Of a stretch of DNA of 64,000 nucleotides, positions 1,905 through 62,566 are shown piece by piece (position 1 is the first letter of the stretch; every line of letters starts with the position of its first letter). Position numbers and translations under genes: made by a program. Source of the stretch: Stegostoma tigrinum (Eukaryota); assembly GCF_030684315.1 (NCBI RefSeq), contig NW_026728203.1:62001-126000 (forward strand), written 5' to 3'. The notes under the pieces were generated by a model. It worked only from the letters and a program-made list of their open reading frames with translations, was not told the DNA's origin and searched no databases.

Positions 1905-4313
1905 TCAACGGAGTGGCAGCCTGTCAAACATGTACTCTCCCATGCCATTGTCAGGGGCTCCCAGTCTCTTCAGGTTGGTGATGTGATCTCCCAGCTTCTT
2001 GATCATCTTCACTTGCTTATCCAAGTAGTGCCTCTCCATGAAATCACAGCTGGAAGACAAAATTAATCCAACAAGGATCAAAAAATGTCAGTGACCTCCC
2101 ATGACAGAAGTGACCATCACCTCACTATGGGGGAGGGGCATGCAAGTGATGCCTTCACAAGGTTTTGTTTAAACATCCTGCAGGAGGCAGATAGAAAAAT
2201 AATTGGATTCCCCACCCTGGAAGTACACAAACAGATCACTTTCTTCCAGGAAAGGGATAAAACCTCACATGAGGGTCTATGTGGTCAGAGGCAAGTTTGT
2301 GCAGATCCAGCAGACTCTGGTTCACATCCTTCTCCATCTGCAGAGCTCTCTGCATCACCTCCAGACCATTGCCCCACTCATCCTGCTCTGGCTTCTGAAG
2401 CGAGGGAAGCAGGAACAGAAAGCACAGCTCAGCAGGCAGTTGTATCATTAGTCTACATCTGATCAGTTAGTTATCCCTCATCATTTCCAGGGGTTACATT
2501 CAGACAAAAAATTTTACTTGGATACAAAAACCCTCTAGATTTTATGCTGGTCTGAGAATAAAGAAATGTTAACATATCCCACTGTTACTGTGAATTCTGA
2601 AAGAAGTCGTATCTAGAATCAGTCGCAATGGAAGTAATCCCTTGCTTTACTGTTTGATGTAGTGACCAGAATGGTCCCAAGGCATTACAAACCTCTTCTG
2701 GATGTAGTGAGGTTGGATGCTGCTGCTTTTTGTAGCTGCAAGTTCTCAGCCTTACCTTTTGTTACCTCACCTTGTCCATATAGAGTCACATACAGGGACA
2801 TGTGCTCACCATCCAGTAGCCTGGATCATCTGAATTGCCTTCTGCTATTGAGTCACAAATGCAAAGTATTTCCCTTTTCCCTAAACAAATCCTGTTTTGG
2901 TGAACAACTTGCCCTTGACATAGTATTTGATCAATCCTGAAGCTAAATAGATGGAGATACCAGTCGATTGTAGCTGCTCAAAAAGCTGCAAACAGACAGA
3001 CATTCTCAGAATCCAACCTTGATGTCCTCGGGAGGACTCAGCCTCCACGTTTATTCTGGAATGCCATCAGTTTCTCAGCGTGTTCCCGCTCCTCATGGGA
3101 CTGCTCCTTGAAGAACTCAGCAAAGTGATGGAGGGCAACATCATCCTGGTCAAAGAGAGAGAACTGCAAACAGACAAAATGGGAAGTAAATTTCACTCAA
3201 TTCAGCTTGGTTTTGCTCACGAAATGGAAGTTAGATGGACAGTAAGAAGACAGGTATTTACATTTATGGTCATCCATAAACTAAACTAGACAGATATTTG
3301 TTCAAACATCTAGAAATAAAGATTAAGTAGCACCCGCTACAACCGCTGGTCGGTGACTTGGTGAGACAGTGCACGGTGACGGTCACAGCTGGCAACAGGC
3401 ATTAGACATCCCTGCACTGCAGGTCAGAAACACTATTACCCAGTGCTGGAAGCCAATCAGGGCATTGTCCAACAGAACGAAGGGGCATGTGCATGTTGAC
3501 CAAGAGAAGCTGAAATCTGAGCTCCTCACATTACCAACATCACTCATCTGATTTAGCCCCACTGTCCTAACACCTCATCTGCACAAGAGACAGTGACTGA
3601 TTTTTGTTCCAGATAATCCATCTTGGGAGTGGAAAAAGTCTGCTCCTCATAATTAGCAACTAAAAACCATGAAGGAAAGGTCACTGGACCAAAAACAGGA
3701 ACTGATTTCTCACCACAGATCCTACCAGACCCACTAAGCTTTTCCAGCAGCTCATTTTAGTCTTTTATTTCCAGTAGTTAATCACAGTTAGGATGCTTAT
3801 TAAAAAAAAGGCTTCATTAAAAGGACAAGATATAAAAAGTTAGATTTGGACTGATGCAGGCTTCCACAAGGATGTAAATGATTTCAAATATAAATGGGCC
3901 ATTGATATCAACATGGAAGGAGGAGTTGAATTAAGAAGCAGAACCAGGCCATCCCTCAGCACCAAAAATGTGCTCTGCCCAGAATTACAACATACTGGGG
4001 ACTCCTAGACAAGAGCCAGCTCCAACACAAGACAAGCTTAAAATTGCTACAGAATTAGTATTAAGAGCACTCACAGGATTCATTCCAGGAAGGACAACAG
4101 ACACGATATATGGTAGTACTAAATCATTGAGCAAGAAGCCACTTAAAGGCTCAGTACAATCATATCACAGCCCTAACACTGAAATAGACCATTCAAGATC
4201 ACAAGTCTCACCATGGAGAGGTAAACATAGGAGGAATAAAGCTCCAGGTTGATCTGTTTGTTCACAGCATCCTCACAGTCCTTGTGGTAATTCTGACACA
4301 CTTGGGAGGCCAT
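1905..4313 (-). pseudogene. Ferritin copy 1 (M/heavy-B-like) pseudogene; exons 4313-4212, 3163-3018, 2394-2269, 2049-1905
   Basis: Exon 1 reads [34 protein letters not shown]. Exon 2 has CGA>TGA (tca at 3038-3040) and a 1-bp deletion (146 vs 147 bp). Exon 4 has a 2-bp deletion at its start (145 bp), giving CTG TGA after splicing. Confidence 0.92.
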
Positions 4314-4349
4314 CATCACTAGCCTTGTTCATTAAAACCAAGACCACCC

Positions 4350-4387
4350 TAGAACTGAGTTGCTCCCCGACAAGCTCTGTATTTATA
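4350..4387 (-). promoter_or_regulatory. TATA box (4380-4387) and Inr-like TCAGTTC of copy 1
   Basis: TATAAATA about 67 nt upstream of ATG, with a YYANWYY match at TATA-Inr spacing. Confidence 0.6.
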
Positions 4388-6679: not shown

Positions 6680-8756
6680 TATGTTGCAATGGGAAAGTGA
6701 TTGGCAACATCAATATCTTACCGAATAAATATCTAACTGCTCATTCACATATTATCCTTTCCAAAAAGCAGCTGTTTTTTGCTTTATCATGGATGATTTA
6801 CTTCTACTACTAGGAATGTAATCATATTCCCCACTCTCGGTCCTGGAATGGAATTGAAAAGAAGCAGGATCTCTCTATCTACCCTATCAAATCCATGAAT
6901 CCACTTGTAAATTTCAAGCACAGACATCCCTTCCACTTCTACACCGAGAGACTTGGGAAAACTATTATCATCGTAGCCAATTAACTTTCTGCCCAGGTTC
7001 ATTCCAGAAATTCTGTGCATAAGCATCTTTGGATTGAACCTACTGGAACAGTGCACTCCAGATGGGGTTGAACTAGGACTTGACAATTTCACAAAAGAAG
7101 GCCCATCCTGAGGTATTGGACCCGGTCTGAGATCAGGCTCACCATGAGAGAATGTGGTGGCTTTCCTTCTTGAATTGCTGTTGCCTATTTGCTGTCGTCA
7201 GATCCATAATGTTCCGAGTGAGGGAATTCCAGGATTCTGATCCACCGACCCTGGAGCATGGCGGGTCACGTTTCCAACTCAGGATGGCATGTCGCTTGGT
7301 GGAGTAGTTAGAGGGGGTGGTGTTCCCCTGTATCAGATGCTTTTCTCCCATGGCACGTAATTAGGGCTATGGAAAGTATTGTCTCAGGAGCGATGGTGGA
7401 TTTCTGCAGCTTTTGGGAGGCAGTACACAGTGTACTCTGTGTGTCAGTGGTGCAAAGAATGAATCTCGTGGCTGGTGGGAGCGGGAGGCCATCACATTTC
7501 TGGAGTGGTGGACTGATCTTCTAATTCTGTGCAACAACTCTCTGGAGTTCTAGAATTAAGAAACTGATGAGTAGCATTAAATTCAGTGTCAAAAATGCAT
7601 CCTTACTTAGTCTGGCCTGCATATGACACTGCAACCACAGCAAAGCGTGACACTCTGACCTGGCTTTGGCAGGGGGCAATCGGAAATGGATAAATGGTGT
7701 CAGCTCAGAGACATCCTCATCCTTTTTCTAAAGGAATCTGTCACCCCTGAGCATCAGTAATTAGGCAGCCAGAGTGCTCTGCAGGTGTAGGTACATTCCA
7801 GTCAGTCAATCTACATCAGGAGAGCTTATTTCCTTGCTAAGAATAGGAACTGCTGCTTTCTGCCAGTGGCATTTGGGTTCGAGCTTTATTTTCTCCTGGT
7901 GTCATGAGCATTTGGCGTCCTTAGACTGCAGAGAAGTGATAGAAGTTCTACCACAGGGGCTCGAAGGTGGGGACTGCTTCATTACCTAATCAGGATCATT
8001 GTCTAGAAGCAGAGAGAGACTGATACACAAGAAAACAAACTTTGCCATTCTCCTACAAACAGCCACTGCCCTCACTCCTTCCACCACCGCAGCAAAAGAG
8101 AGAAACCAATTTCCCACATCTGGACACAATTGCTTATCTAAATGCTAAAGATCAGTGCATCTGAAATGCTGGATGTTCTGCTATATATATTCCTGTTCCA
8201 AAAAGAGTGAATGTATGCTCAAATCATTAGATTTGAAGTGCGACAACAAAATTGCTGGAAAGCTTGGGTCCTGGGACTGAACAGTTTTCTCTCCACAGAT
8301 GCTCCCCAAACTTGCTATTTCCTGCCCCTGCTTATTTACAAAAGAGACCTAAACATTTGCAAGGGCAGTGTCTAACATTGAGACAGGGGGCTGGTTTCAC
8401 TGAAGATATTGACCAGAAGCTGGTTTGGAATAAAGAAGTCAATACAACACTGCTTACTCGCCAAAAAAACCCAAACTGAACACTTGTGGAATTTCCACTA
8501 CAAGGATTGCCCACCTAATTCCTACAAACAAGAGAAAAGGAGCAAGCCAGTGGGGCAGGCATTGAATCAAAGGTTAATCAGAACAGAAAAACACTTACAT
8601 GATCAGGTGTCAAACAGCAATACCAAGAGCCAGAAGCAGCTGTGAAATTATGCAAAGTACTCAGTTGCATGGTGAACACTATTTTAATTTGCTCAGAGCA
8701 CAACCAAGTTACTAGCATTATGTCACCATGTACAACATACACATTATTGACCCCAT

Positions 8757-11032
8757 TCAGCCGAGTGTGAGCCTGTCAAACAGGTACTCTCCCATGCCAT
8801 TGTCAGGGGCTCCCAGTCTCTTCAGGTTGGTGATGTGATCTCCCAGCTTCTTGATCATCTTCACTTGCTCATCCAAGTATTGCCTCTCCAGGAAGTCACA
8901 CAGCTGGAAGAGAAAATTAATCCAGAGGATCAAAAGTGTCTGAAAGTGACCCCCATGACAGATGTGACCATCACAACCAGGTGGAGGTCCACTGAGGTGA
9001 TGCATTTGTAAGTTTGTTTTACCAGCCTGCAGGAGGCTGCGAGAAGGTAATTGGATTTTTACCCAGAGAGTGCACAAACACACCACTTTCTTCCAAGAAG
9101 AAAGTTTACAAACTCACATGAGGGTCAGTGTGGCCAGAGGCGAGTTTGTGCAGATCCAGCAGACTCTGGTTCACATCCTTCTCCATCTGCAGAGCTCTCT
9201 GCATTGCCTCCAGACCACTGCCCCACTCATCCTGCTCTGGCTTCTGGAGGGAGGGAAGCAGGAACAGAAAGCACAGTTCAGCAGGCAGTTGTATCATTAG
9301 TCTACATCTGATCAGTTAGTTATCCCTCATCATTGTAGGGGAGGTACTGCAAACCAACTTGAATTTGAAGACAACAACTAGATTTTGTACTGAGGGAATA
9401 ACAAATTTTCTAAACACATTCTACTGTTAATGTAGATTCTCAGAATTCACATGTAGAGAATAGGTACCAATGGAAGTAGTTCCTGGCTTCACTATTGTGG
9501 TGTTAGAAACATCTTCCAGATTCAGAAAGGCTGGACACTGCTACTTTCCACAGTGCAACAATTTCCTGTCTTAGCTTTTGTTACCTCATTCTGTCTGAAG
9601 GAGAGTCATTCACATTGATATCTACTCACTATTCTGGTTCCTCTCAATTGCCCTCATAAGTGCAGAGTATTTCCTTTCAACCTAAAGGAATCCTATTTTG
9701 GTGAACACCCTCCCCTTCACACAGTATTTGTTCAAGGCTAAAGCTAAATAGATGGAGATACCAGTCGATTGTAGCTGCTCACAAAAAGCTGCAAACAGAA
9801 GGCTTCAGAATCTAACCTTGATGTCCTGCAGGATGACTCGACCTCCACGTTTATTCTGGAATGCCATCAGTTTCTCAGCGTGTTCCCGTTCCTCATGGGA
9901 CTGCTCCTTGAAGAACTCAGCAAAGTGATGCAGGGCAACATCATCCCGGTCAAAGTAAGAGAACTGTGGGGAGAGAGAGGCTAAAAGGAAACTGTCTGAA
10001 ATTCATGAATGACACTCCTCACTCTGGAACTAACCTGGGCACCATCTGGATTCCACATTTAAGTGGTTAAAAAAACAGACAAAGCAGGAAGTCACCTTCC
10101 ATGGATGATGAAGGGGAGAGCTGTCTAGAGCCATTAGACATCCCTGCTCTGCAGGTTAGAAACACTATTGTTCAGGAGGTGGAGACCAGTTCGGCCCCTG
10201 TCCAACTGAATGAAGGGACATGTGTTCATTAACACAACCAGAAAGCTCAGTCAGCAGTCTCATTATCACTATCACCCACCTGAATAACCGCAGTGTCCTA
10301 CCACCCACTCCACAGAATTTTAACTGCTTTGTTAGAGAGAAAGAAAAAAAAACACATACATAGTCTGAAAATGTGCCCCTTTCCTCACATTGCATAGCTC
10401 AAAGCCACTTCTGAGAAAGGGTCAATGGACCCAGAGCTTGGATTTCTTCCAGCTCTGTAGAGCTTTTCTAGCTATTTTTGTTAGTGTTTAATGTCTAGCA
10501 GCAGCTGTTCTTTTAGTTCAGGGAACTTGACATCTTGAGCACAAGACAGTCCGGTGAATAGGGCAAGGTTTTAAAAAAGGAGTATATTTGTGTCAGGAAA
10601 AGCTTTTGTTGAGAAAAGGAATACAACCAAAGTTTTACAAAAATTAATTATTGACCAAGACCAGATCATCCCTCCAGAGTTAGATGAAAAAAATCACCAA
10701 GGGTTACATTGTCCAGAGACAGCAAGCTGGGCATCCACATCCAGGAGCCAGTTGGACATGAAGACAGTGGTCAAGTTTTGAACAGAGAGTCAGTGATAAG
10801 ACCTGCACTAGATTGCAACAGGGGAAGGGCCACAGAAAATAATACATGTTACAGCTAATTCATTAACCCAGCATAAAAACCAAACAGGTCAACACTATCA
10901 TAGCACAGGCTTCAATTCCACAAAGCTCACCAGGGAGAGGTAAACATAGGAGGAATAGAGCTCCAGGTTGATCTGCTTGTTAACAGCATCCTCACAGTCC
11001 TTGTGGTAGTTCTGACACACTCGGGAAACCAT
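8757..11032 (-). CDS. Ferritin copy 2, M/heavy-chain-B-like subunit, 173 aa; exons 11032-10931, 9963-9817, 9243-9118, 8903-8757
   Basis: Four exons of 102/147/126/147 bp, phase-0 GT-AG introns as in vertebrate ferritins. Translation [10 protein letters not shown]...[40 protein letters not shown].../KPEQDEW...QMEKDVNQ.../[23 protein letters not shown]...FDRLTLG*. Ferroxidase ligands present. Confidence 0.93.
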
Positions 11033-11069
11033 CTTCACTATTCCTGCTCACAAGCACCAAGAAAACTCT

Positions 11070-11215
11070 AGAACTAAGTCTCTCTCTCCCACAGGCTCTT
11101 GTATTTATAGTCCTGGGACCATCCTGCAGTCACACAGAGAGAGGCAGAACTGATGATGACTGACAGTTGCTGCTGGCCAATCAGGAACCACCCATGCATA
11201 CAGGCACCAATGAGA
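11070..11215 (-). promoter_or_regulatory. Core promoter of copy 2: Inr-like TTAGTTC, TATAAATA (11102-11109), two CCAAT motifs (read on + strand)
   Basis: Motif spacing; the block is nearly identical in copies 4, 7 and 10 and similar in copy 9. Confidence 0.7.
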
Positions 11216-15439: not shown

Positions 15440-16649
<1,210 letters not shown>

Positions 16650-20559: not shown

Positions 20560-22955
<2,396 letters not shown>

Positions 22956-22991
22956 CTTCACTATTCCTGCTCACAAGCAGCAAGAAAACTC

Positions 22992-23137
22992 TAGAACTAA
23001 GTCTCTCTCTCCCACAGGCTCTTGTATTTATAGTCCTGGGACCATCCTGCAGTCACACAGAGAGAGGCAGAACTGATGATGACTGACAGTTGCTGCTAGC
23101 CAATCAGGAACCACCCCTGCATACAGGCACCAATGAG
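22992..23137 (-). promoter_or_regulatory. Core promoter of copy 4 (TATAAATA 23025-23032, CCAAT motifs)
   Basis: Same block as copy 2. Confidence 0.7.
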
Positions 23138-27377: not shown

Positions 27378-29768
<2,391 letters not shown>

Positions 29769-34526: not shown

Positions 34527-35713
34527 TCAGCTGAGTGTGAGCCTATCAAACAGGTACTCTCCCGTGCCATTGTCAGGGGCTCCCAGTCTCTTCAGGTTGG
34601 TGATGTGATCTCCCAGTTTCTTGATCATCTTCACTTGCTCATCCAAGTAGTGCCTCTCCAGGAAGTCACACAGCTGGAAGACAAAATTAGTCCAGAGGAT
34701 CAAAAAGCAGTCTGAAAGTGACCTCCCATGACAGATGTGACCATCACCACCACGTGGAGGTCCACGTAGGTGATGCCTTTGAAAGGTTTTAACAGCCGGC
34801 AGGAGGCTGGGAGAAGGTAATTGGATTTTTAACCCAGAGAGTGCACAAACACACCACTTTCTTCCAAGAAAGAGAGAGAAAAGTTTACAAACTCACATGA
34901 GGGTCAGTGTGGCTAGAGGAGAGTTTGTGCAGATCCAGCAGACTCTGGTTCACATCCTTCTCCATCTGCAGAGCTCTCTGCATTGCCTCCAGACCATTGC
35001 CCCACTCATCCTGCTCTGGCTTCTGGAGGGAGGGAAGCAGGAACAGAAAGCACAGCTCAGCAGGCAGTTGTATCATTAGTCTACATCTGATCAGTTAGTT
35101 ATCCCTCATCATTGTAGGGGAGGTACTACAGGCCAACTTGACCTTGGTAAAACACCTGCTGTATTTGGTACTGTTCTTGAAGGGGACATTTCTAAACAGA
35201 TCCTGCTATGCTGTGATCAGAGTGATCTCAAGGCATCAGAAACATCTTTAGATGTATAAAGGCTTCATACTGATGCTTTCCACACCTGAAAGATTTCTGT
35301 TTTCCCTTTTGACACCTCATCTTGTCCAAAGCAGCGTTAGACACTGATATTTACTCACCATCCAGAATACTGGATTATCACAATTGCCAACTGTTGTTCA
35401 ATCACAAGTGCAAAAGTGTTTCCTTTTAGTGAAGGGAATCCTATTGTGGTGAGCAACCCTCCCATTCATACAGCATTTGTTCAGTCCTGAAGGTAAACAG
35501 ATTGAGCTAGCCACAATTGAGTGGTATTTCACGAAAAGCTGCAAACAGAAGGCTTTGGAATCCAACCTTGATGTCCTGCAGGAGGATTCGGCCCCCACGT
35601 TTATTCTGGAAAGCCATCAGGTTCTCAGCGTGTTCCTGCTCCTCATGGGACTGCTCCTTGAAGAACTCAGCAAAGTGACGCAGGGCAACATCATCCCGGT
35701 CAAAGTAAGAGAA
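34527..35713 (-). pseudogene. Ferritin copy 6, exons 2-4 only (35713-35567, 35022-34897, 34673-34527); exon 1 and promoter deleted
   Basis: Exons 2-4 are open with intact splice sites. Intron 1 runs into the same deletion junction as copy 3 (about 36345) and no exon 1 follows. Confidence 0.88.
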
Positions 35714-39610: not shown

Positions 39611-42299
39611 TCAACTGAGCGTGAGCCTGTCAAACAGGTACTCTCCCGTGCCATTGTCAGGGGCTCCCAGTCTCTTCACGTTGGTGATGTGATCTCCCAG
39701 CTTCTTGATCATCTTCACTTGCTCATCCAAGTAGTGCCTCTCCAGGAAGTCACACAGCTAGAAGACAAAATTAATCCAGAGGATCAAAAAGGTGTCTGAA
39801 AGTGACCCCCATGACAGACGTGACCATCACCACCATGTGGAGGTCCACTGAGGTGAAGCCTTTGCAAGGTTTTACCAGCCGGTAGGAGGCTTGGAGAAGG
39901 TAATTCGATTTTTAAACCAAGAGAGAGTGCACAAACACATCACTTTCTTCCAAGGAAGAGAGAGAATACAGTTTACAAACTCACATGAGGGTCAGTGTGG
40001 CCAGAGGAGAGTTTGTGCAGATCCAGCAGACTCTGATTCACATCCTTCTCCATCTGCAGAGCTCTCTGCATTGCCTCCAGACCACTGCCCCACTCATCCT
40101 GCTCTGGCTTCTGGAGGGAGGGAAGCGGGAACAGAAAGCAGAGTTCAGCAGGCAGTTGTATCATTAGTCTACATCGGTTAGTATCCCTCATCATTGTAGG
40201 AGGTACTACAAACAAACTTGAATTTGATCAAGACAACTAGATTTTGTACTGAGGGACTAAGAAATTTTCTGAACACATTCTACTGTTCATGTCGATTCTC
40301 AGAATTCACATGCAGAGAATAGGTGCCAATGGAAGTAATTCCTGGCTTGAATCTTCCAGATTCAGAAAGGCTGGACACTGCTACTTTCCACACTGCAACA
40401 ATTTCCTGTCTTAGCTTTTGCTCCCTCATTCTGTCTGAAGGAGAGTCATTCACATTGATATCTACTCACTATGCTGGTGAGTCTCAATTGCCCTCAAGTG
40501 CAGAGTATTTCCTTTCACCTAAAGGAAGCCTATTTTGCAGAACAACCTCCCCTTCATACAGTATTTGTTCAATGCTAAATTGAATTAGCTGGAGATACCA
40601 GTCGATTGTAGCTGCTCAAAAAGCCACAAAACAGAAGGCTTCAGAATCTAACCTTAATGTCCTGCAGGAGGACTCGACCTCCACGTTTATTCTGGAATGC
40701 CATCAGTTTCTCAGCGTGTTCCCGTTCCTCATGGGACTGCTCCTTGAAGAACTCAGCAAAGTGATGCAGGGCAACATCATCCCGGTCAAAGTAAGAGAAC
40801 TGTGGGAAGAGAGAGGTTTAAAGGAAACTGTCTGAAATTCGTGAATGACACTCCTCACTCAGGAACTAACCTGGGCACCATCTTGATTCCACATTTAAGT
40901 GGTTAAAAAAACAGACAAAGCAGGAAGTCACCTTCCATGGATTATAACCCAAACAACAGATACTTAAGCAGCCTTTGTGCAGATATTTCACCAGCATTCT
41001 GGAAATCAAGGACAAAAACNNNNNNNNNNNNNNNNNNNNNNNNNNNNNNNNNNNNNNNNNNNNNNNNNNNNNNNNNNNNNNNNNNNNNNNNNNNNNNNNN
41101 NNNNNNNNNNNNNNNNNNNNNNNNNNNNNNNNNNNNNNNNNNNNNNNNNNNNNNNNNNNNNNNNNNNNNNNNNNNNNNNNNNNNNNNNNNNNNNNNNNNN
41201 NNNNNNNNNNNNNNNNNNNNNNNNNNNNNNNNNNNNNNNNNNNNNNNNNNNNNNNNNNNNNNNNNNNNNNNNNNNNNNNNNNNNNNNNNNNNNNNNNNNN
41301 NNNNNNNNNNNNNNNNNNNNNNNNNNNNNNNNNNNNNNNNNNNNNNNNNNNNNNNNNNNNNNNNNNNNNNNGACAGCTGGCTATTGCCATCAGACATCCC
41401 TGCTCTGCAGGTTAGAAGCACTATTGTTCAGGAGGTGGAGACCAGTTAGGCCCCTGTCCAACTGAATGAAGGGACGTGTGTTCGTGAACACAGCCAGAAA
41501 GCTCAGTCAGCAGCCTCATTATCACCATCACCCACCTGAATAACCCCAGTGTCCTACCATCCACTCCACAGAATTCTAACTGCTTTGTTAGAGAGAGAAA
41601 AAAGATCACATACATAGTGTGAAAGTGTGCCTCTTTCCTCACATTGCATAGCTCAAGGCCACTTGAGAAAGGGTCAGTGGACCCAGAGCTTGGATTTCTT
41701 CCAGGTGTGTAGAGCTTTTCTAGCTTTTCTGTTGGTGTTTAGTGTCCAGCAGCTGCTGTTCTTTTTGTTCAGGGAACTTTACATCTTGAGCACAGGACAG
41801 TCTGGTGAATGGGGCAAGGTTTTAAACAAAAAGGAGTATATTTGTGTCAGGAAAAGTTTCCACCAGGGAAGGCTTTTGTTGAGAAAATGAATGCAACCAA
41901 GTTTTAAAAAAATTAATTATTGACCAAGACCAAATCATCCCTCCAGAGTTAGATGAAAAATCACCAAGGGTTACATTGTCCAGAGACAGCAAGCTGGGCA
42001 TCCACATCCAGGAGCCAGTTGGACATGAAGACAATGGTCAGGTTTTGAACAGAGAGTCAGTGTTAAGGCCTGCACTAGATTGCAACAGGGGAAGGGCCAC
42101 AGAAAATAATACATGTTACAGCTAATTCATTAACCCAGCATAAAAACCAAACAGGTCAACACTATCATAGCACAGGCTTCAATTCCACAAAGCTCACCAT
42201 GGAGAGGTAAACATAGGAGGAATAGAGCTCCAGGTTGATCTGCTTGTTAACAGCATCCTCACAGTCCTTGTGGTAGTTCTGACACACTTGGGAAACCAT
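39611..42299 (-). CDS. Ferritin copy 7, 173 aa; exons 42299-42198, 40799-40653, 40110-39985, 39757-39611
   Basis: Open frame, canonical splice sites (exon 4 acceptor TAG). An assembly gap lies in intron 1, so linkage of exon 1 to exons 2-4 depends on scaffolding. Confidence 0.82.
41020..41371. other. Assembly gap (352 N) in intron 1 of copy 7
   Basis: Run of n characters. Confidence 1.
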
Positions 42300-42335
42300 C
42301 TTCACTATTCCTGCTCACAAGCACCAAGAAAACTC

Positions 42336-42482
42336 TAGAACTAAGTCTCTCTCTCCCACAGGCTCTTGTATTTATAGTCCTGGGACCATCCTGCAGTCAC
42401 ACAGAGAGAGGCAGAACTGATGATGACTGACAGTTGCTGCTGGCCAATCAGGAACCACCCCTGCATACAGGCACCAATGAGA
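42336..42482 (-). promoter_or_regulatory. Core promoter of copy 7 (TATAAATA 42369-42376, CCAAT motifs)
   Basis: Same block as copy 2. Confidence 0.7.
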
Positions 42483-47373: not shown

Positions 47374-49783
47374 TCAATGGAGTGGCAGCCTGTCAAACAT
47401 GTAGTCTCCCAAGCCATTGTCAGGGGCTCCCAGTCTCTTCAGGTTGGTGGTGTGATCTCCCAGCTTCTTGATCATCTTCACTTACTTATCCAAGTAGTGC
47501 CTCTCCATGAAATCACAGCTGGAAGACAAAATTAATCCAACAAGGATCAAAAAATGTCAGTGACCTCCCATGACAGAAGTGACCATCACCTCCCTATGGG
47601 GGAGGGGCATGCAAGTGATGCCTTCACAAGGTTTTGTTTAAACATCCTGCAGGAGGCAGGTAGAAAAATAATTGGATTCCCCACCCTGGAAGTACACAAA
47701 CAGATCACTTTCTACCAGGAAAGGGATAAAACCTCACATGAGGGTCTATGTGGTCAGAGGCAAGTTTGTGCAGATCCAGCAGACTCTGGTTCACATCCTT
47801 CTCCATCTGCAGAGCTCTCTGCATCACCTCCAGACCATTGCCGCACTCATCCTGCTCTGGCTTCTGAAGGGAGGGAAGCAGGAACAGAAAGCACAGCTCA
47901 GCAGGCAGTTCTATCATTAGTCTACATCTGATCAGTTAGTTATCCCTCATCATTTCCAGGGGTTACATTCAGACAAAAAATTTTACTTGGATACAAAAAC
48001 CCTCTAGATTTTATGCTGGCCTGAGAATAAAGAAATGTTAACATATCTCACTGTTACTGTGAATTCTGAAAGAAGTCGTATCTAGAATCAGTCGCAATGG
48101 AAGTAATCCCTTGCTTTACTGTTTGATGTAGTGACCAGAATGGTCCCAAGGCATTACAAACCTCTTCTAGATGTAGTGAGGTTGGATGCTGCTGCTTTTT
48201 GTAGCTGCAAGTTCTCAGCCTTACCTTTTGTTACCTCACCTTGTCCATATAGAGTCACATACAGGGACATGTGCTCACCATCCAGTAGCCTGGATCATCT
48301 GAATTGCCTTCTGCTATTGAGTCACAAATGCAAAGTATTTCCCTTTTCCCTAAACAAATCCTGTTTCGGGGAACAACTTGCCCTTGACATAGTATTTGAT
48401 CAATCCTGAAGCTAAATAGATGGAGATACCATTCGATTGTAGCTGCTCAAAAAGCTGCAAACAGACAGACATTCTCAGAATCCAACCTTGATGTCCTGCA
48501 GGAGGACTCAGCCTCCACGTTTATTCTGGAATGCCATCAGTTTCTCAGCGTGTTCCCGCTCCTCATGGGACTGCTCCTTGAAGAACTCAGCAAAGTGATG
48601 GAGGGCAACATCATCCCGGTCAAAGAGAGAGAACTGCAAACAGACAAAATGGGAAGTAAATTTCACTCAATTCAGCTTGGTTTTGCTCACGAAATGGAAG
48701 TTAGATGGACAGTAAGAAGACAGGTATTTACATTTATGGTCATCCATAAACTAAACTAGACAGACATTTGTTCAAACATCTAGAAATAAAGATTAAGTAG
48801 CACCCGCTACAACCCCTGGTAGGTGACTTGGTGAGACAGTGCACGGTGACGGTCACAGCTGGCAACAGGCATTAGACATCCCTGCACTGCAGGTCAGAAA
48901 CACTATTACCCAGTGCTGGAAGCCAATCAGGGCATTGTCCAACAGAACGAAGGGACATGTGCATGTTGACCAAGAGAAGCTGAAATCTGAGCTCCTCACA
49001 TTACCAACATCACTCATCTGATTTAGCCCCACTGTCCTAACACCTCATCTGCACAAGAGACAGTGACTGATTTTTGTTCCAGATAATCCATATTGGGAGT
49101 GGAAAAAGTCTGCTCCTCATAAGTAGCAACTAAAAACCATGAAGGAAAGGTCACCGGACCAAAAACAGGAACTGATTTCTCACCACAGATCCTACCAGAC
49201 CCACTAAGCTTTTCCAGCAGCTCATTTCAGTCTTTTATTTCCAGTAGTTAATCACAGTTAGGATGTTTATTAAAAAAAAGGCTTCATTAAAAGGACAAGA
49301 TATAAAAAGTTAGATTTGGACTGATGCAAGCTTCCACAAGGATGTAAATGATTTCAAATATAAATGGGCCATTGATATCAACATGGAAGGAGGAGTTGAA
49401 TTAAGAAGCAGAACCAGGCCATCCCTCAGCACCAAAAATGTGCTCTGCCCAGAATTACAACATACTGGGGACTCCTAGACAAGAGCCAGCTCCAACACAA
49501 GACAAGCTTAAAATTGCTACAGAATTAGCATTAAGAGCACTCACAGGATTCATTCCAGGAAGGACAACAGACAAGATATATGGTAGTACTAAATCATTGA
49601 GCAAGAAGCCACTTAAAGGCTCAGTACAATCATATCACAGCCCTAACACTGAAATAGACCATTCAAGATCACAAGTCTCACCATGGAGAGGTAAACATAG
49701 GAGGAATAAAGCTCCAGGTTGATCTGCTTGTTAACAGCATCCTCACAGTCCTTGTGGTAGTTCTGACACGCTTGGGAGGCCAT
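47374..49783 (-). pseudogene. Ferritin copy 8 pseudogene (duplicate of copy 1); exons 49783-49682, 48633-48487, 47863-47738, 47518-47374
   Basis: In-frame TGA in exon 2 (tca 48508-48510) and the same 2-bp deletion at the start of exon 4 as copy 1. Confidence 0.92.
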
Positions 49784-50990
49784 CATCACTAGCCTTGTTC
49801 ATTAAAACCAAGACCACCCCAGAACTGAGTTGCTCCCCGACAAGCTCTGTATTTATACTCCTGGGGGCCATCCCGCACTGACACAGAGAAGGGCAGAGCT
49901 GATGATGACTGGCAATTGAAAAAAGCTTTAACATTTTGTTTCTAAATTAAGGTGGTTGTGACAAACTGCACGAGGAAGTCAATGAAGAAGAGGTGTCAGT
50001 TTCTCTGCCTGTTGTGCTGGGATATGAGACAGAAAGGTGGCAAATTGGCTCTGGGTCATAGAAAACTGTGACAGGATCAGACGGGGCAAGGACAGGAAGG
50101 ATGTTCCCAATGATGGGGGAGTCCAGGATCAGGGTATCCTGATGTAAGAGGACTGGGTTGGACATTTAAGACTGAGAGGAATACAAACCCAAAATTTACA
50201 AAAGTTCCTGGGTGGACATTCAGAGGATTTTTAACGACAGAGGCCATTCAGCCCATCATGTCCGTATCGGCTTCCGAAAGAGCTACCCCCCTCGTCCCCC
50301 TCTCCAGCCCTATACCCTCTATATTCGTCACTCCCAAGTATATATCCAGCTCTTGTTTTGAAGCCACCTATGGGATCTACCTCCGCCACTCTCCCAGGCA
50401 TCAGATTCCAAATCCTAACAACCTTCTGAATAGAGAGGTTTGTCCTCATCTCAGAGCTCCCTTACTGACAAATTGTGACCCCTCATCACTGCCGTATCAA
50501 CTGGTGAAAACAGGATATCCTCCTTTACCCTGACAGAATGTTCATTATTTTTGTCACTTCAACGGGGACACCTCTTAATCAACTATGCTTCAAGGAGATT
50601 TATCCCAATTTCCTTCATCTTTCCTTGTATCTAAAATCCCTCATTCCTGGTGTCATTCTCGTAAATGCCCTTTGAACTCTGTCGAGGGCTTTAATGTCCT
50701 TCCTTAAATACCATGCCCAGAACTGAACACAGTACTGCATATGTGGTCTAACCCATGATTTGTGGAGGTGTAACATCTATTCCTCGCTTTTATACTCTCC
50801 GCATCTATTTGAAAACACACATTTCACAAAAGCCTTCTTCATAGCAGGTTAGTCCCGCTCGGCCACTTTCAGATAATCACATACTTGAAACCCAAAGTCC
50901 CTCTGCTCCCGTACTCACCTCAGATTTGTAACATCGAGCCTGTTTTGTCTTTCTATGTTTCTCAACCAAAATGCATTAATCTTTTATGTT

Positions 50991-54231: not shown

Positions 54232-57172
54232 TCAGCTGAGTGTGAGCCTGTCAAACAGGTACTCTCCCATGCCATTGTCAGGGGCTCCCAGTCTCTTCAG
54301 GTTGGTGATGTGATCTCCCAGCTTCTTGATCATCTTCACTTGCTCATCCAAGTATTGCCTCTCCAGGAAGTCACACAGCTGGAAGAGAAAATTAATCCAG
54401 AGGATCAAAAGTGTCTGAAAGTGACCCCCATGACAGATGTGACCATCACCACCATGTGGAGGTCCACTGAGGTGATGCATTTGTATGTTTGTTTTAACAG
54501 CCTGCAGGAGGCTGGGAGAAGGTAATTGGATGTTTACCCAGAGAGTGCACAAACACACCACTTTCTTCCAAGAAGAAAGTTTACAAACTCACATGAGGGT
54601 CAGTGTGGCCAGATGCGAGTTTGTGCAGATCCAGCAGACTCTGGTTCACATCCTTCTCCATCTGCAGAGCTCTCTGCATTGCCTCCAGACCATTGCTCCA
54701 CTCATCCTGCTCTGGCTTCTGGAGGGATGGAAGCAGGAACAGAAAGCACAGCTCAGCAGGCAGTTCTATCATTAGTCTACATCTGATCAGTTAGTTATCC
54801 CTCATCATTGTAGGGGAGGTACTTCAGACCAACTTTACCTTGGTTAAACACCTGCCAGATGTTGTACTATTCTTTTCTTGAAGAGGAAATTTTCCAAACA
54901 TATCCTACTATTCAGTGATCAGAATGATCCCCAGGCATCAGAAACATCTTCTAGATGTGGAAGGGCTGCATCAAATGCTTCCCACACCTGACAATTTTCT
55001 GTCTTACCTTTTGATAGCTCATCTTGTCCAAAGAAGCGTTAGACGCTGACATTTGCTCACCATCCAGTATTCTGGATGATCACAATTGCTGACTGTTATT
55101 CAATCACAAGTGCAAAGTATTTCCTTTTAAAGGAGCCTCATTGTGGTGAACAGCCTCCCGTTCATAGTATTTGTTCAGTCTTGAAGCTGAACATATTGAG
55201 ATACCAGTCAATTGTCGTGAGCAGATTAAAAAAGGTTAGAATCCAATCTTGATGTCCTGCAGGTGGACTTGGCCTCCACGTTTATTCTGGAACGTGATCA
55301 GTTTCTCAGCATGTTCTCGCTCCTCATGGGACTGCGCCTTGAAGAACTCAGCAAAGTGACGCAGGGTAACATAATCCCGGTCAAAGTAAGAGAACTGTGG
55401 GGAGGAGAAAGGCAGGAAAAGGAAACATAGCTGAAATTCATCAACGGCACTCCTCAATCAGAAACTAACCTGGTCACCATCTTGATTCCACATTTAAGAA
55501 CAAAGAAAATTACAGCACAGGAACGGGCTCTTTGACCATCCAAGCCTGCACCGATTGAGATCCGGTCTAAATCTGTCATCTCTTTTCTAAGGGTTTGTAT
55601 CTCTTTGCTCCCTGCTCATCCATGTACCTGTCCACACACATCTTAAAAGACACGAGCGTGACTGCGTCTACCACCTCCACGGGCAGCATGTGCCAGGCAC
55701 CCACCAATCTCTGGGTAAAGAACTTCTCCACACATATCCACATGATAAATTGCCCGTAGGGTTCAGAGGTGTGGGGGTTATAGGGGATGGGTCTGTTTGG
55801 GATGCTTCAAAGGGGCGGTGTGGTACTTTTGGGCTAAAAGGCCTCTTTCCACACTGTGGGAATCTAACCTGATTCCCCGCTAAACTTTCCTCCTCTTACA
55901 TTGAACTCGTGAACCCTAGAAAGTGAGTCTCACTCTGGCGAAAAAGCTTCTTGCTGTCCACCTTGTCTATGCCCCTCACGATTTTGTCGACCTCAAATCA
56001 GGCCACCCACCATCCCCTCAATCGCCCTCCTTCTCATGAAAATAATCCTAATCTACTCATCCTTTCTTCATAGCTAGCACCCTCCATACCAGGCAATATC
56101 CTGGTGAACCTCCTCTCCACCCTGTCCAAAGCATTCACATCCTTTTGGTAATGTGGCGACCAGAACTGTACATGCAATTACTGGAATGTGATCCTGCCAG
56201 ATCTGTAAAGCAGGAAGGCTTTTTCCATGGATTACAGCCTAAACAGAGGGCACACAACCAGCCAATCAGGGACACACACACACACCCACCAACAGCCAGG
56301 ATTTGCAGTGAGGTCCAGCATTACCATCATCACCCACCTGAATAACCCCACTCTGTCCTACCTTCTCCCCAGCACTGAATTCTAACTGGTTTCTTTTTCA
56401 GTAATTCACATTTGGAGTGTGAAAACATACCACACTTGTCCTTCCTCCTACTGAATAGCTGAGAAACCTACTTCTGAGGAAGAGTCACTGGACCCAAAAC
56501 ATGAACTGATTTCTCTAAGTCCTGCCAGATCTGTAAAGCTATTCCAGCTCTTTTTGTTGCTGTTTCTAATTTCCAGCAGTTGCTGTTCTTTTAGAAAAGA
56601 AAAAAACTCATTTAGGGCCAGAGCAGAGGGCAGCCTGGTGAATGGGGCAACATTTTAAGAGTGCGAGTACATTTTGCATAAAGTGAGTGAGAGTACATGT
56701 TGCTTTGAAATTTTCACACGAGGGAAAGCTTTTCGAACAAAAAAGTTGCAACCAACTTTAAGAAAAGTATAGGCTCATCAGCAACGCCAGCTCATCCCTT
56801 CACAGCATGAAGAAAAATCACTAAGGTGTACATTGTCCAGAGATAAGTGGTAAATGTCGCCCATGACTCAGTTAGAACACAACATAAACTTCAAGTTTCC
56901 AACAGAGTCGGTGTTAACAATTTCACTGGATTCACTCAGGGAAGGGCCACAGACCAGAACACATGCTACAGCTAAATCATTAAACGAGGCAAGAAAATAA
57001 ACCTGAGGGTCAATGCAAATATATCACAGGCTTCAATTTGAGGTCAGATCTTCAATGTCACAAGGCTCACCGTGGAGAGGTAAACATAGGAGGAACAGAG
57101 CTCCAGGTCGATCTGTTTGTGAACAGCATCCTCACAGTCCTTGTGGTAGTTCTGACACACTGGGGAAGCCAT
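54232..57172 (-). pseudogene. Ferritin copy 9, probable pseudogene; exons 57172-57071, 55394-55248, 54718-54593, 54378-54232
   Basis: Exons are open, but the intron-2 donor is AT rather than GT (55247). Many private changes ([33 protein letters not shown]). A hairpin element is inserted at the predicted TSS. Confidence 0.8.
56470..56590 (+). mobile_element. Decayed Penelope-like terminal repeat in ferritin intron 1; homologues near 3670-3775, 10410-10510, 22330-22420, 29140-29250, 41663-41765, 49140-49245, 61750-61850
   Basis: ctgaggaagagtcactggacccaaaac (hammerhead-like CTGAnGA..GAAAC decay) followed by cctgccagatctg..agct.ttccagc. Confidence 0.5.
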
Positions 57173-57218
57173 CTTCACTATCCCTACTGATTATAACCAA
57201 GATCACTCTAGAACTGAG

Positions 57219-57427
57219 ATAATAAAATGTGAGGCTGGATGAACACAGCAGGCCAAGCAGCATCTCAGGAGCACCAAAGCTGACGTTTCGGGCCGAGACC
57301 CTTCTGAAGGGTCTAGGCCCGAAACGTCAGCTTTTGTTCTCCTGAGATGCTGCTTGGCCTGCTGTGTTCATCCAGCCTCACATTTTATTATCTTGGATTC
57401 TCCAGCATTTGCAGTTCCCATTATCTC
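57219..57427. mobile_element. Penelope-like terminal-repeat fragment forming a 177-bp inverted repeat, with 16-bp TSD
   Basis: Palindrome 57217-57393 (88-bp arms, 3 mismatches, 1-nt centre at 57305). Hammerhead-like remnant ctgaagggtctaggcccgaaacgtc. Direct repeat TCACTCTAGAACTGAG at 57203-57218 and 57428-57443. The Penelope assignment rests on recalled similarity. Confidence 0.8.
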
Positions 57428-57429
57428 TC

Positions 57430-57572
57430 ACTCTAGAACTGAGTTGCTCGCCCACAAGCTCTGTATTTATACTCCTGGGGCCGTCCTGCACTCACAGAGA
57501 GGCAGAACTGATGATGACTGACAGTTGCTGCTGGCCAATCAGGAACCACCCCTGCATACAGGCACCAATGAG
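57430..57572 (-). promoter_or_regulatory. Core promoter of copy 9 (TATAAATA 57464-57471), displaced from exon 1 by an insertion
   Basis: Same TATA/CCAAT block; the Inr lies within the duplicated target site. Confidence 0.65.
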
Positions 57573-60094: not shown

Positions 60095-62383
<2,289 letters not shown>

Positions 62384-62419
62384 CTTCACTATTCCTGCTC
62401 ACAAGCACCAAGAAAACTC

Positions 62420-62566
62420 TAGAACTAAGTCTCTCTCTCCCACAGGCTCTTGTATTTATAGTCCTGGGACCATCCTGCAGTCACACAGAGAGAGGCAGAA
62501 CTGATGATGACTGACAGTTGCTGCTGGCCAATCAGGAACCACCCATGCATACAGGCACCAATGAGA
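62420..62566 (-). promoter_or_regulatory. Core promoter of copy 10 (TATAAATA 62453-62460, CCAAT motifs)
   Basis: Same block as copy 2. Confidence 0.7.

Follow-up and report, generated by a model that had tools for sequence, protein, structure and literature searches.

Introduction

Repression through the iron-responsive element (IRE) and the IRPs is the textbook rule for vertebrate cytosolic ferritins. FTHL17 is an intronless retrogene without an IRE. According to the available part of one paper, it is a germ-cell ferritin with six genes in mouse, in which the E62K change alone abolishes ferroxidase activity (PMC7760355). FTMT is described in the accessible parts of two papers as ferroxidase-active and not IRE/IRP-regulated (PMC7760355, PMC11719527), and the second states that iron is loaded efficiently only where H and L functions are combined. 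In the snails Lymnaea and Biomphalaria, the yolk ferritin is IRE-less, occurs beside an IRE-type soma ferritin, and is tied to egg iron, as far as the available text goes (PMC10799875). FTMT, cited in a first-pass annotation of the present DNA as the exception that lacks an IRE, is thus such a case but not the sole precedent. Ferritin has been recorded in fish, amphibian, snail, and schistosome eggs in the part of a further source at hand (PMC1488847).

The fthl27 genes of the hadal snailfish are tandem fish ferritins (14 copies, recent, broadly expressed), and the accessible text of that paper contains 0 occurrences of IRE (PMC10746142). In the Greenland shark, 155 copies named 'FTL' and 179 named 'FTH1' have been reported, an expansion common to the white shark, and one sentence in the available part of the preprint states that the largest ferritin cluster is ovary-specific (10.1101/2024.09.09.611499). 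Iron, IRE, and UTR occur 0 times in the main text of this preprint as far as accessible, and ferritin, FTH1, and iron occur 0 times in a second Greenland shark preprint (10.1101/2025.02.19.638963).

Here we report the analysis of a ferritin gene of the shark Stegostoma tigrinum and of the gene family to which it belongs. The first-pass annotation had proposed that these genes have a leader of about 40 nt without an IRE and are uncoupled from IRP control.

The focal gene and the ten ferritin units of the window

All positions given without a contig name refer to the window, that is, the whole 64,000-nucleotide stretch of DNA analysed, which lies on the contig C216 (C216:62001-126000). The focal copy, a ferritin gene of four exons, is intact: its splice sites are canonical and its frame encodes 173 aa. 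Its ATG starts at 11032 on the minus strand, on which all features listed below also lie. The coding part of exon 1 (10931..11032, 34 codons) ends at a GT donor. Exon 2 (9817..9963, AG/GT) carries the ferroxidase residues E61, E62, and H65; exon 3 (9118..9243) carries E107; and exon 4, up to the stop (8757..8903), carries Q141, the last two also with splice sites. Exons 2, 3, and 4 are found spliced in contigs of related organisms. A poly(A) signal, ATTAAA, is located 68 nt past the stop (8683..8688), and ATTAAA or AATAAA was identified 59–72 nt past the stop in 10/10 window copies. Exon 3 is 93–98% identical to proteins of the zebra, bamboo, and whale sharks, which are the closest named ones. 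Relatives carry PF00210, and a family member aligns with solved structures of M and H ferritins at E 1e-80, the best solved relative being bullfrog M ferritin.

The TATA box of the focal copy, TATAAATA, is positioned at 11102..11109. Its first T is 77 nt and its end 69 nt from the ATG, in agreement with the distance of about 70 nt annotated before. Two inverted CCAAT (ATTGG) boxes lie further upstream (11177..11211), 149 and 179 nt before the ATG.

Ten ferritin units were found in the window, of which five are intact, three are broken, and two lack exon 1. Besides the focal gene, intact copies are present at 60095..62460 (from TATA box to stop), 39611..42376, and 20560..23032, and another with an intact ORF and no canonical TATA box at 27378..29768. 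In the copy at 54232..57471 the donor of intron 2 is lost and a repeat lies between TATA box and initiator; in-frame stops break the ORF at 47374..49857, and a stop together with a frameshift breaks the copy at 1905..4387. The units at 34527..35713 and 15440..16649 have no exon 1. The box TATAAATA occurs in seven of the eight exon-1 copies. The copy at 29768 has no such box, and at 57172 a repeat inserted between box and initiator has moved it to 299 nt upstream. This short repeat (57220-57430) sits exactly between the two elements.

Positions 1-24,584 are 99.5% identical to C50:21,015,000-21,039,582 in reverse orientation. C216 may be a second haplotype left uncollapsed in the assembly or a block of DNA copied very recently, a point that touches the count of units and not the IRE result.

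Two ferritin arrays on one contig

The family of the focal gene (array 1) occupies C50:19.95-21.56 Mb and C216, where nearly all of the listed exon matches fall; the exon searches, with 470 and 419 candidates at first look, gave at least 150 places each. Array 1 was sampled over 494,656 bases. Of the 58 units counted there, 48 have exon 1, 43 have all four exons, and 31 are intact, the other 27 being broken, partial, or cut by a sample edge. Inner segments totalling 314 kb contain 49 units, from which about 250 units are extrapolated for C50. The array changes strand several times at C50:20.39-20.84 Mb, where blocks are inverted.

A second array (array 2), which came up in searches with canonical-type ferritin proteins, lies at about 12.98-14.40 Mb of C50 (L097-L116) on the plus strand, with about one gene per 8 kb. 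A 200 kb sample contained 25 units, 24 with exon 1 and 16 intact, from which about 175 units are extrapolated. The H-like array 1 and the L-like array 2 are about 5.5 Mb apart on C50, parts of each having been sampled.

Array 1 ends 52 kb from a single-copy ferritin gene on C50 that has an IRE, and the array genes nearest to it are on the opposite strand. A TIP49/RUVBL gene is found on C50, 1.4 Mb away. In human, RUVBL2 is linked with FTL, and FTH1 with BEST1. By its content, C50 fits an M/L locus. Our trees do not place array 1 firmly among the M, L-like, and presequence-bearing genes. A second IRE gene, on C20, lies about 40 kb from a bestrophin gene and groups with FTH1 in the tree; for the arrays, neither grouping with vertebrate FTH1 nor BEST1 linkage was seen. 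Glycogen-synthase matches were found on C20 and C33 and none on C50 in a strict first look.

Two further ferritin genes lie next to array 1. One, between the array and the IRE gene (C50:21,570,730-21,580,354, minus strand; L007:230-354 and L008), is a divergent single gene without an IRE. It has K61 and Q65, so that its ferroxidase centre is damaged, and a TATA box 124 nt before the ATG; judged from its sequence, it is a third IRE-less lineage at the locus. The other (C50:21,591,488-21,601,900, plus strand; L006:1489-1758 and L004:174-1900) adjoins the array, contains introns, and encodes a 56-residue, Arg/Leu-rich, acid-free N-terminal extension resembling a mitochondrial presequence. It has a CpG-island promoter, no IRE, and ferroxidase residues that are kept. 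Six other sharks and a ray have orthologues of 198-231 aa, which group in one clade (100/100), and the gene may be a mitochondrial ferritin of an origin separate from that of the intronless mammalian FTMT.

Transcription start and 5′ leader

Processed ferritin retrocopies, at least nine, were found on seven contigs (L013, L014, L015, L016, L017, L018, L076, L077, and L083). Seven derive from array 1, one from array 2, one from the C50 IRE gene, and 0 from FTH1, a tally biased by the array-type starting query and by the copy number of the arrays. The array-derived retrocopies imply that mRNA of the arrays is present in the germ line. L013 (on C11) and L016 (on C43) are intronless and A-tailed and reach their 5′ end at an initiator-like motif. 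The homology of L013 starts 46 nt before the ATG by comparison with the focal promoter type and 48 nt by comparison with the best-matching C50 copies; the corresponding values for L016 are 43 and 44 nt. The remaining array-derived retrocopies are 5′-truncated at or past the ATG. Since two independent insertions stop within 4 nt at the predicted site, they are good evidence for a leader of 43–48 nt that would have no upstream exon.

In the focal gene, the initiator-like start deduced from the retrocopy ends is positioned at 11075..11078 (minus strand), 27–34 nt below the TATA box. The leader (11033..11078, minus strand) would then be 43–46 nt long, and it contains no IRE, upstream ATG, or stable fold. 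The leader quoted in the first-pass annotation is present letter for letter, and the start proposed at the Inr-like motif is where the two retrocopy ends fall. The proposed leader is indeed short, but its length is 43–48 rather than about 40 nt. An upstream exon bearing an IRE, which would contradict the proposal, was searched for and none was found; as far as the initiator, the retrocopies match the genomic sequence without a break.

Two contigs, X3 and X4, presumed to come from RNA runs of two other organisms, are about 96% alike and spliced at all three introns; X1 and X2 carry partial spliced pieces of the family. This shows, at the level of the assembled sequences, that the array family is spliced in relatives. 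The 5′ limits of X3 and X4 are 22 and 28 nt from the ATG; as assembled contigs cannot fix a start, these ends agree only weakly with the mapped one.

Absence of the IRE from the arrays

Rfam gave no hit in the 64-kb window, and at E≤10 over positions 8000-32000 it returned five chance snoRNA matches and no IRE. None of the eight exon-1 copies of the window has CAGTGN in the 50 nt preceding the ATG; the earlier observation that none of them has the loop or the C-bulge stem is thus confirmed. In the 48 sampled array-1 copies with exon 1, a bare CAGTGN was found in this interval twice, both times on C50 and neither time with a C-bulge stem. When a C-bulge, at least 4/5 pairs, and an IRE-type loop were required, no IRE-like stem-loop was detected within 80 nt of the ATG in array 1 (0/48) or array 2 (0/24). 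Weak stem-loop matches in the 1.5 kb upstream numbered nine across the 48 array-1 copies and six for array 2, all above the TATA box. The folding of the focal leader against shuffles gave z +0.46, versus z -5.0 for a true ferritin IRE of the same genome.

Genome-wide (3.2 Gb), where 82 of some 1.5 million candidates were scored, Rfam IRE_I had at least two matches. Both lie in the leaders of single-copy ferritin genes, on C20 and at C50:21,609,424, and both are perfect IREs. The same two were the only matches in 150 kb of the C50 and C20 loci, with none in array DNA, and 150 kb of array 2 gave 0 matches. With a custom model built from these two IREs, which match it by construction, the best non-training score was 14.4 bits in 484,853 bases, and the best score in 210,000 bases was 13.5 bits. 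A 22-letter IRE pattern with up to three mismatches had 62 matches genome-wide, two of them perfect, against 23 for the reversed control, and none lay inside either array or on C216. The covariance check of leaders and upstream DNA, and the comparison with the other ferritin loci of the genome, both of which the first-pass annotation had suggested, hence agree.

The leader was also considered as a decayed IRE, and this was rejected: the shuffle p ranged from 0.01 to 0.6 with the scoring used, 159 and 221 of 1358 unrelated genomic tiles scored equally well, and a profile of 40 leaders failed to recover the IRE gene. In the single L-like gene on C50, a search for a decayed IRE gave no score above 2.8 bits.

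The IREs of the C20 and C50 genes indicate that IRE control of ferritin exists in S. tigrinum. Because these two genes keep it, the IRE-less arrays are a real exception within their own genome. We regard the joint claim, that the arrays have no IRE and that transcription of array 1 starts at the initiator, as close to certain from these sequences; absence was scored in the S. tigrinum genome with searches that target canonical IREs and would miss non-canonical IRP sites. As to the proposed uncoupling from IRP control, its two supports, IRE-free leaders and the start site, stand, and the escape itself is well supported at the level of sequence.

Promoter structure

The sequence YATAAA is located 62–79 nt before the ATG in 37 of the 48 sampled array-1 copies, the focal box included, a spacing beyond chance, although the copies are paralogues and such promoter counts are non-independent. 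Inverted CCAAT boxes cluster near −110, −140, −170, and −210; 30 of the 31 intact copies have two to five per promoter, versus 0–2 in control stretches. The array-1 promoters are CpG-poor, with a mean of 3.5 CpG per 500 nt versus 25 for FTH1. In array 2, a TATA-like box lies mostly 93–107 nt before the ATG, and 23/24 copies have one to four CCAAT boxes. A CpG-poor CCAAT-TATA layout is the build of tissue-specific, highly transcribed genes.

Some copies at C50:20.39-20.84 Mb (L044-L048, L054-L068) have a leader 13 nt shorter and a TATA box 62 nt before the ATG, and some copies in this region have an upstream ATG within the last 50 nt. The Y-box was tried as an oocyte marker and dropped. The motif was present in 23/31 promoters versus 0/31 controls, yet it is not a specific YB-protein site according to the accessible part of a review (PMC7226217), so we counted these motifs as CCAAT boxes only.

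Encoded proteins, selection, and phylogeny

The residues of the ferroxidase centre, which we take to be E27, Y34, E61, E62, H65, E107, and Q141, are all conserved in 31/31 intact array-1 copies, and 77 of the 173 positions vary. The mean pairwise dN/dS of array 1 is 0.35, and array 2 has a dN/dS of 0.25, which shows purifying selection. All 16 intact copies of array 2 have K62 and E141, states found in L chains too, and the array is 73% identical to array 1. As sequence, then, array 2 encodes an L-like subunit, and array 1 encodes an H/M-like subunit whose ferroxidase activity is predicted. Function of the array genes at the protein level appears very likely.

The array-1 clade includes Heptranchias, Pristiophorus, a sawfish, Heterodontus, lamniforms, Mustelus, and carpet sharks, with support of 100/98 and 100/99, and 84/98 once array 2 is added. 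Three other sharks have single 90% clusters of array-1 type that number 127, 138, and 180 members. In the tree, array 2 comes out as the sister of array 1, a grouping of modest support (89/78), and no array-2-type protein was found among the 248 proteins compared.

At R23, a position of the NCOA4-binding cleft, K is found in 31/31 array-1 and 15/16 array-2 copies, and R in 61/67 other ferritins; D replaces A19 in 28/31 array-1 copies. According to the available part of one study, the cleft includes A19, N22, and R23, and human FTH1 no longer binds NCOA4 when it carries R23A or A19Y, R23K not being among the mutants tested (PMC11076521). A large NCOA4 exon of the shark (L079:1201-2433, C49, minus strand) keeps the Cys-rich stretch of the human protein. 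The ferritin-binding motif that follows downstream of this stretch in human NCOA4 was not recognisable by eye in this exon, where several short Trp-Leu-Leu motifs recur. That array ferritins might escape NCOA4 is a lead. In addition, the Arg of the VRQNY motif (residue 6; window 11015-11017) is replaced by Cys in 30/31 array-1 proteins and by Ser in array 2, and position 144 is Met in 31/31 array-1 proteins. It is possible that these changes act on inter-subunit disulfides or on ferroxidase site C.

Discussion

We propose that an old elasmobranch ferritin subfamily was duplicated at the M/L locus, lost its IRE, and expanded to hundreds of genes in tandem. Their compact CCAAT-TATA-initiator promoters would produce mRNAs with an unstructured leader of 43–48 nt, and with no IRE in it IRP1/2 would have no site at which to block translation. 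Output would then be set by transcription and gene dosage, and the subunits of arrays 1 and 2 would probably co-assemble into cytosolic 24-mers, with ordinary iron homeostasis left to the single-copy IRE genes. The arrays are thus probably a second iron-storage system made regardless of cell iron, perhaps for the loading of eggs: bulk, feed-forward iron loading in ovary or oocyte would suit large yolky eggs and the long development of sharks. The first-pass annotation, which inferred that the family could be made at low iron, did not consider that its expression is probably restricted to certain tissues, or that a second IRE-less array encodes an L-like subunit. The ovary-specific cluster of another shark, the germ-line retrocopies, the analogy of snail yolk ferritin, and the ferritin recorded in eggs of other animals suggest the egg role, and an ovary or egg iron store is what we favour, with some reserve, as the main one. 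As the array proteins have no signal peptide, they would not be yolk precursors secreted by the liver along the classical route. We give this explanation as a whole a probability of about 0.6.

IRE-free genes driven by transcription could also serve an immune or antioxidant role, such as iron withholding or protection from ferroptosis in epigonal granulocytes or other tissues. According to the accessible part of one source (PMC5568229), the lymphomyeloid epigonal organ surrounds the ovary in sharks and its tissue is present in ovary samples, so the cells behind an ovary signal may be leukocytes. The complete ferroxidase centre in 31/31 copies would suit such a role, as would a CRE-like motif in 15/31 array-1 promoters versus 1/31 controls, and overexpression of fthl27 lowers ROS in the available part of the snailfish paper (PMC10746142). 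Retrocopies, however, need germ-line mRNA, and 8/9 are array-derived; ARE motifs are not enriched (3/31 promoters versus 4/31 controls) and AP-1 is absent. We consider an immune or antioxidant role unlikely as the main explanation, though it is the strongest of the rivals.

The arrays might instead be a largely neutral birth-and-death product, in which one IRE-less duplicate was spread by unequal crossing-over, expression is weak in most copies, and losing the IRE was of no adaptive consequence. Half of the window's units (5/10) are broken or lack exon 1, near-identical blocks were duplicated recently, and a dN/dS of 0.35 is relaxed rather than strict. Neutrality does not sit well with seven catalytic residues invariant in 31/31 copies, with the same-clade clusters of 127, 138, and 180 members in distant sharks, or with the conserved promoter layout, and we hold it improbable. 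That IRP control persists, be it by way of a non-coding exon further upstream, of another start, or of an element of non-canonical type, is more improbable still: the leader itself is the best IRE-model match around the focal gene with filters off (8.5 bits, E 0.93), shares two lower-stem arms with the C50 IRE, and is accompanied by the nine weak stem-loops upstream, but that likeness is not significant and lacks the upper stem and loop, the weak matches all precede the TATA box, the retrocopies follow the genome to the initiator, and no ferritin-type IRE occurs anywhere in the arrays, the neighbouring IRE gene being on the opposite strand.

The second iron store that we favour can be extended, tentatively, to a complete second ferritin system of sharks, and probably rays, more than 250 million years old, with a ferroxidase array and an L-like one of independent derivation, amplified together, whose products are free of IRP control in their synthesis and possibly of NCOA4 in their breakdown and serve as a long-lived iron depot of the oocyte. 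This extension is rather doubtful at present; if true, sharks would have the vertebrate equivalent of the yolk ferritin of invertebrates, achieved by gene dosage and not by secretion.

One vertebrate thus keeps the IRE rule on two genes and exempts several hundred intron-containing others, one array of which has a full catalytic centre. The proposal offers a mechanism for the unexplained extreme ferritin expansion in sharks and makes it testable how large-egged vertebrates stock embryo iron. Array copies have probably been mis-called FTH1 or FTL in genome papers, which bears on claims about longevity and ferroptosis drawn from copy number.

Comparison with known ferritin systems

Like IRE/IRP-controlled FTH1, FTL, and the M ferritins of fish and amphibians, the array genes have four exons, encode 173–176 aa colinear with cytosolic ferritins, and lack a targeting peptide. 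They differ from these in having no IRE, in a leader of about 45 nt, where that of the C50 IRE gene measures about 145 nt, in a copy number that runs to hundreds, and in K for R23. FTMT is intronless, has a mitochondrial presequence, and is single-copy, whereas the array genes have three introns and no presequence; the array-1 protein begins directly with the ferritin domain, its ATG lying 43–48 nt from the mapped start. The E62K change of FTHL17 recurs as K62 of array 2, but array 2 has introns and groups with shark sequences in a tree without FTHL17, and array 1 keeps E62 whereas FTHL17 is ferroxidase-dead. FTHL17 and the shark arrays would be of separate origin. The snailfish tandem belongs to the teleost M clade, a fthl27-labelled protein being grouped with M in the tree.

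With the Greenland and white shark expansions, the arrays share hundreds of full-length copies in few clusters and in distant sharks, and all are very probably the same family. FTH1b is reportedly expanded in the Greenland shark according to a later report. The available text of the Greenland shark preprint describes neither the leader, the loss of the IRE, the ferroxidase status, nor a clade apart from true FTH1 (10.1101/2024.09.09.611499). From the accessible parts of these sources, ferritin expansion and ovary-specific expression were known for these sharks, and the IRE loss and the split into H-like and L-like arrays appear to be new; in the full-text literature searched, which leaves most subscription journals outside, nothing was found on shark ferritins that have lost the IRE or on an L-like array apart from the other. 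Snail yolk ferritin has, in the part of the paper available, a signal peptide and a 42-aa insertion and is one gene (PMC10799875), whereas the shark array proteins have neither feature and are encoded by many copies. What sets the arrays apart is an intron-containing, cytosolic, several-hundred-copy family without an IRE, catalytically intact as judged by its residues and with an L-like partner of its own.
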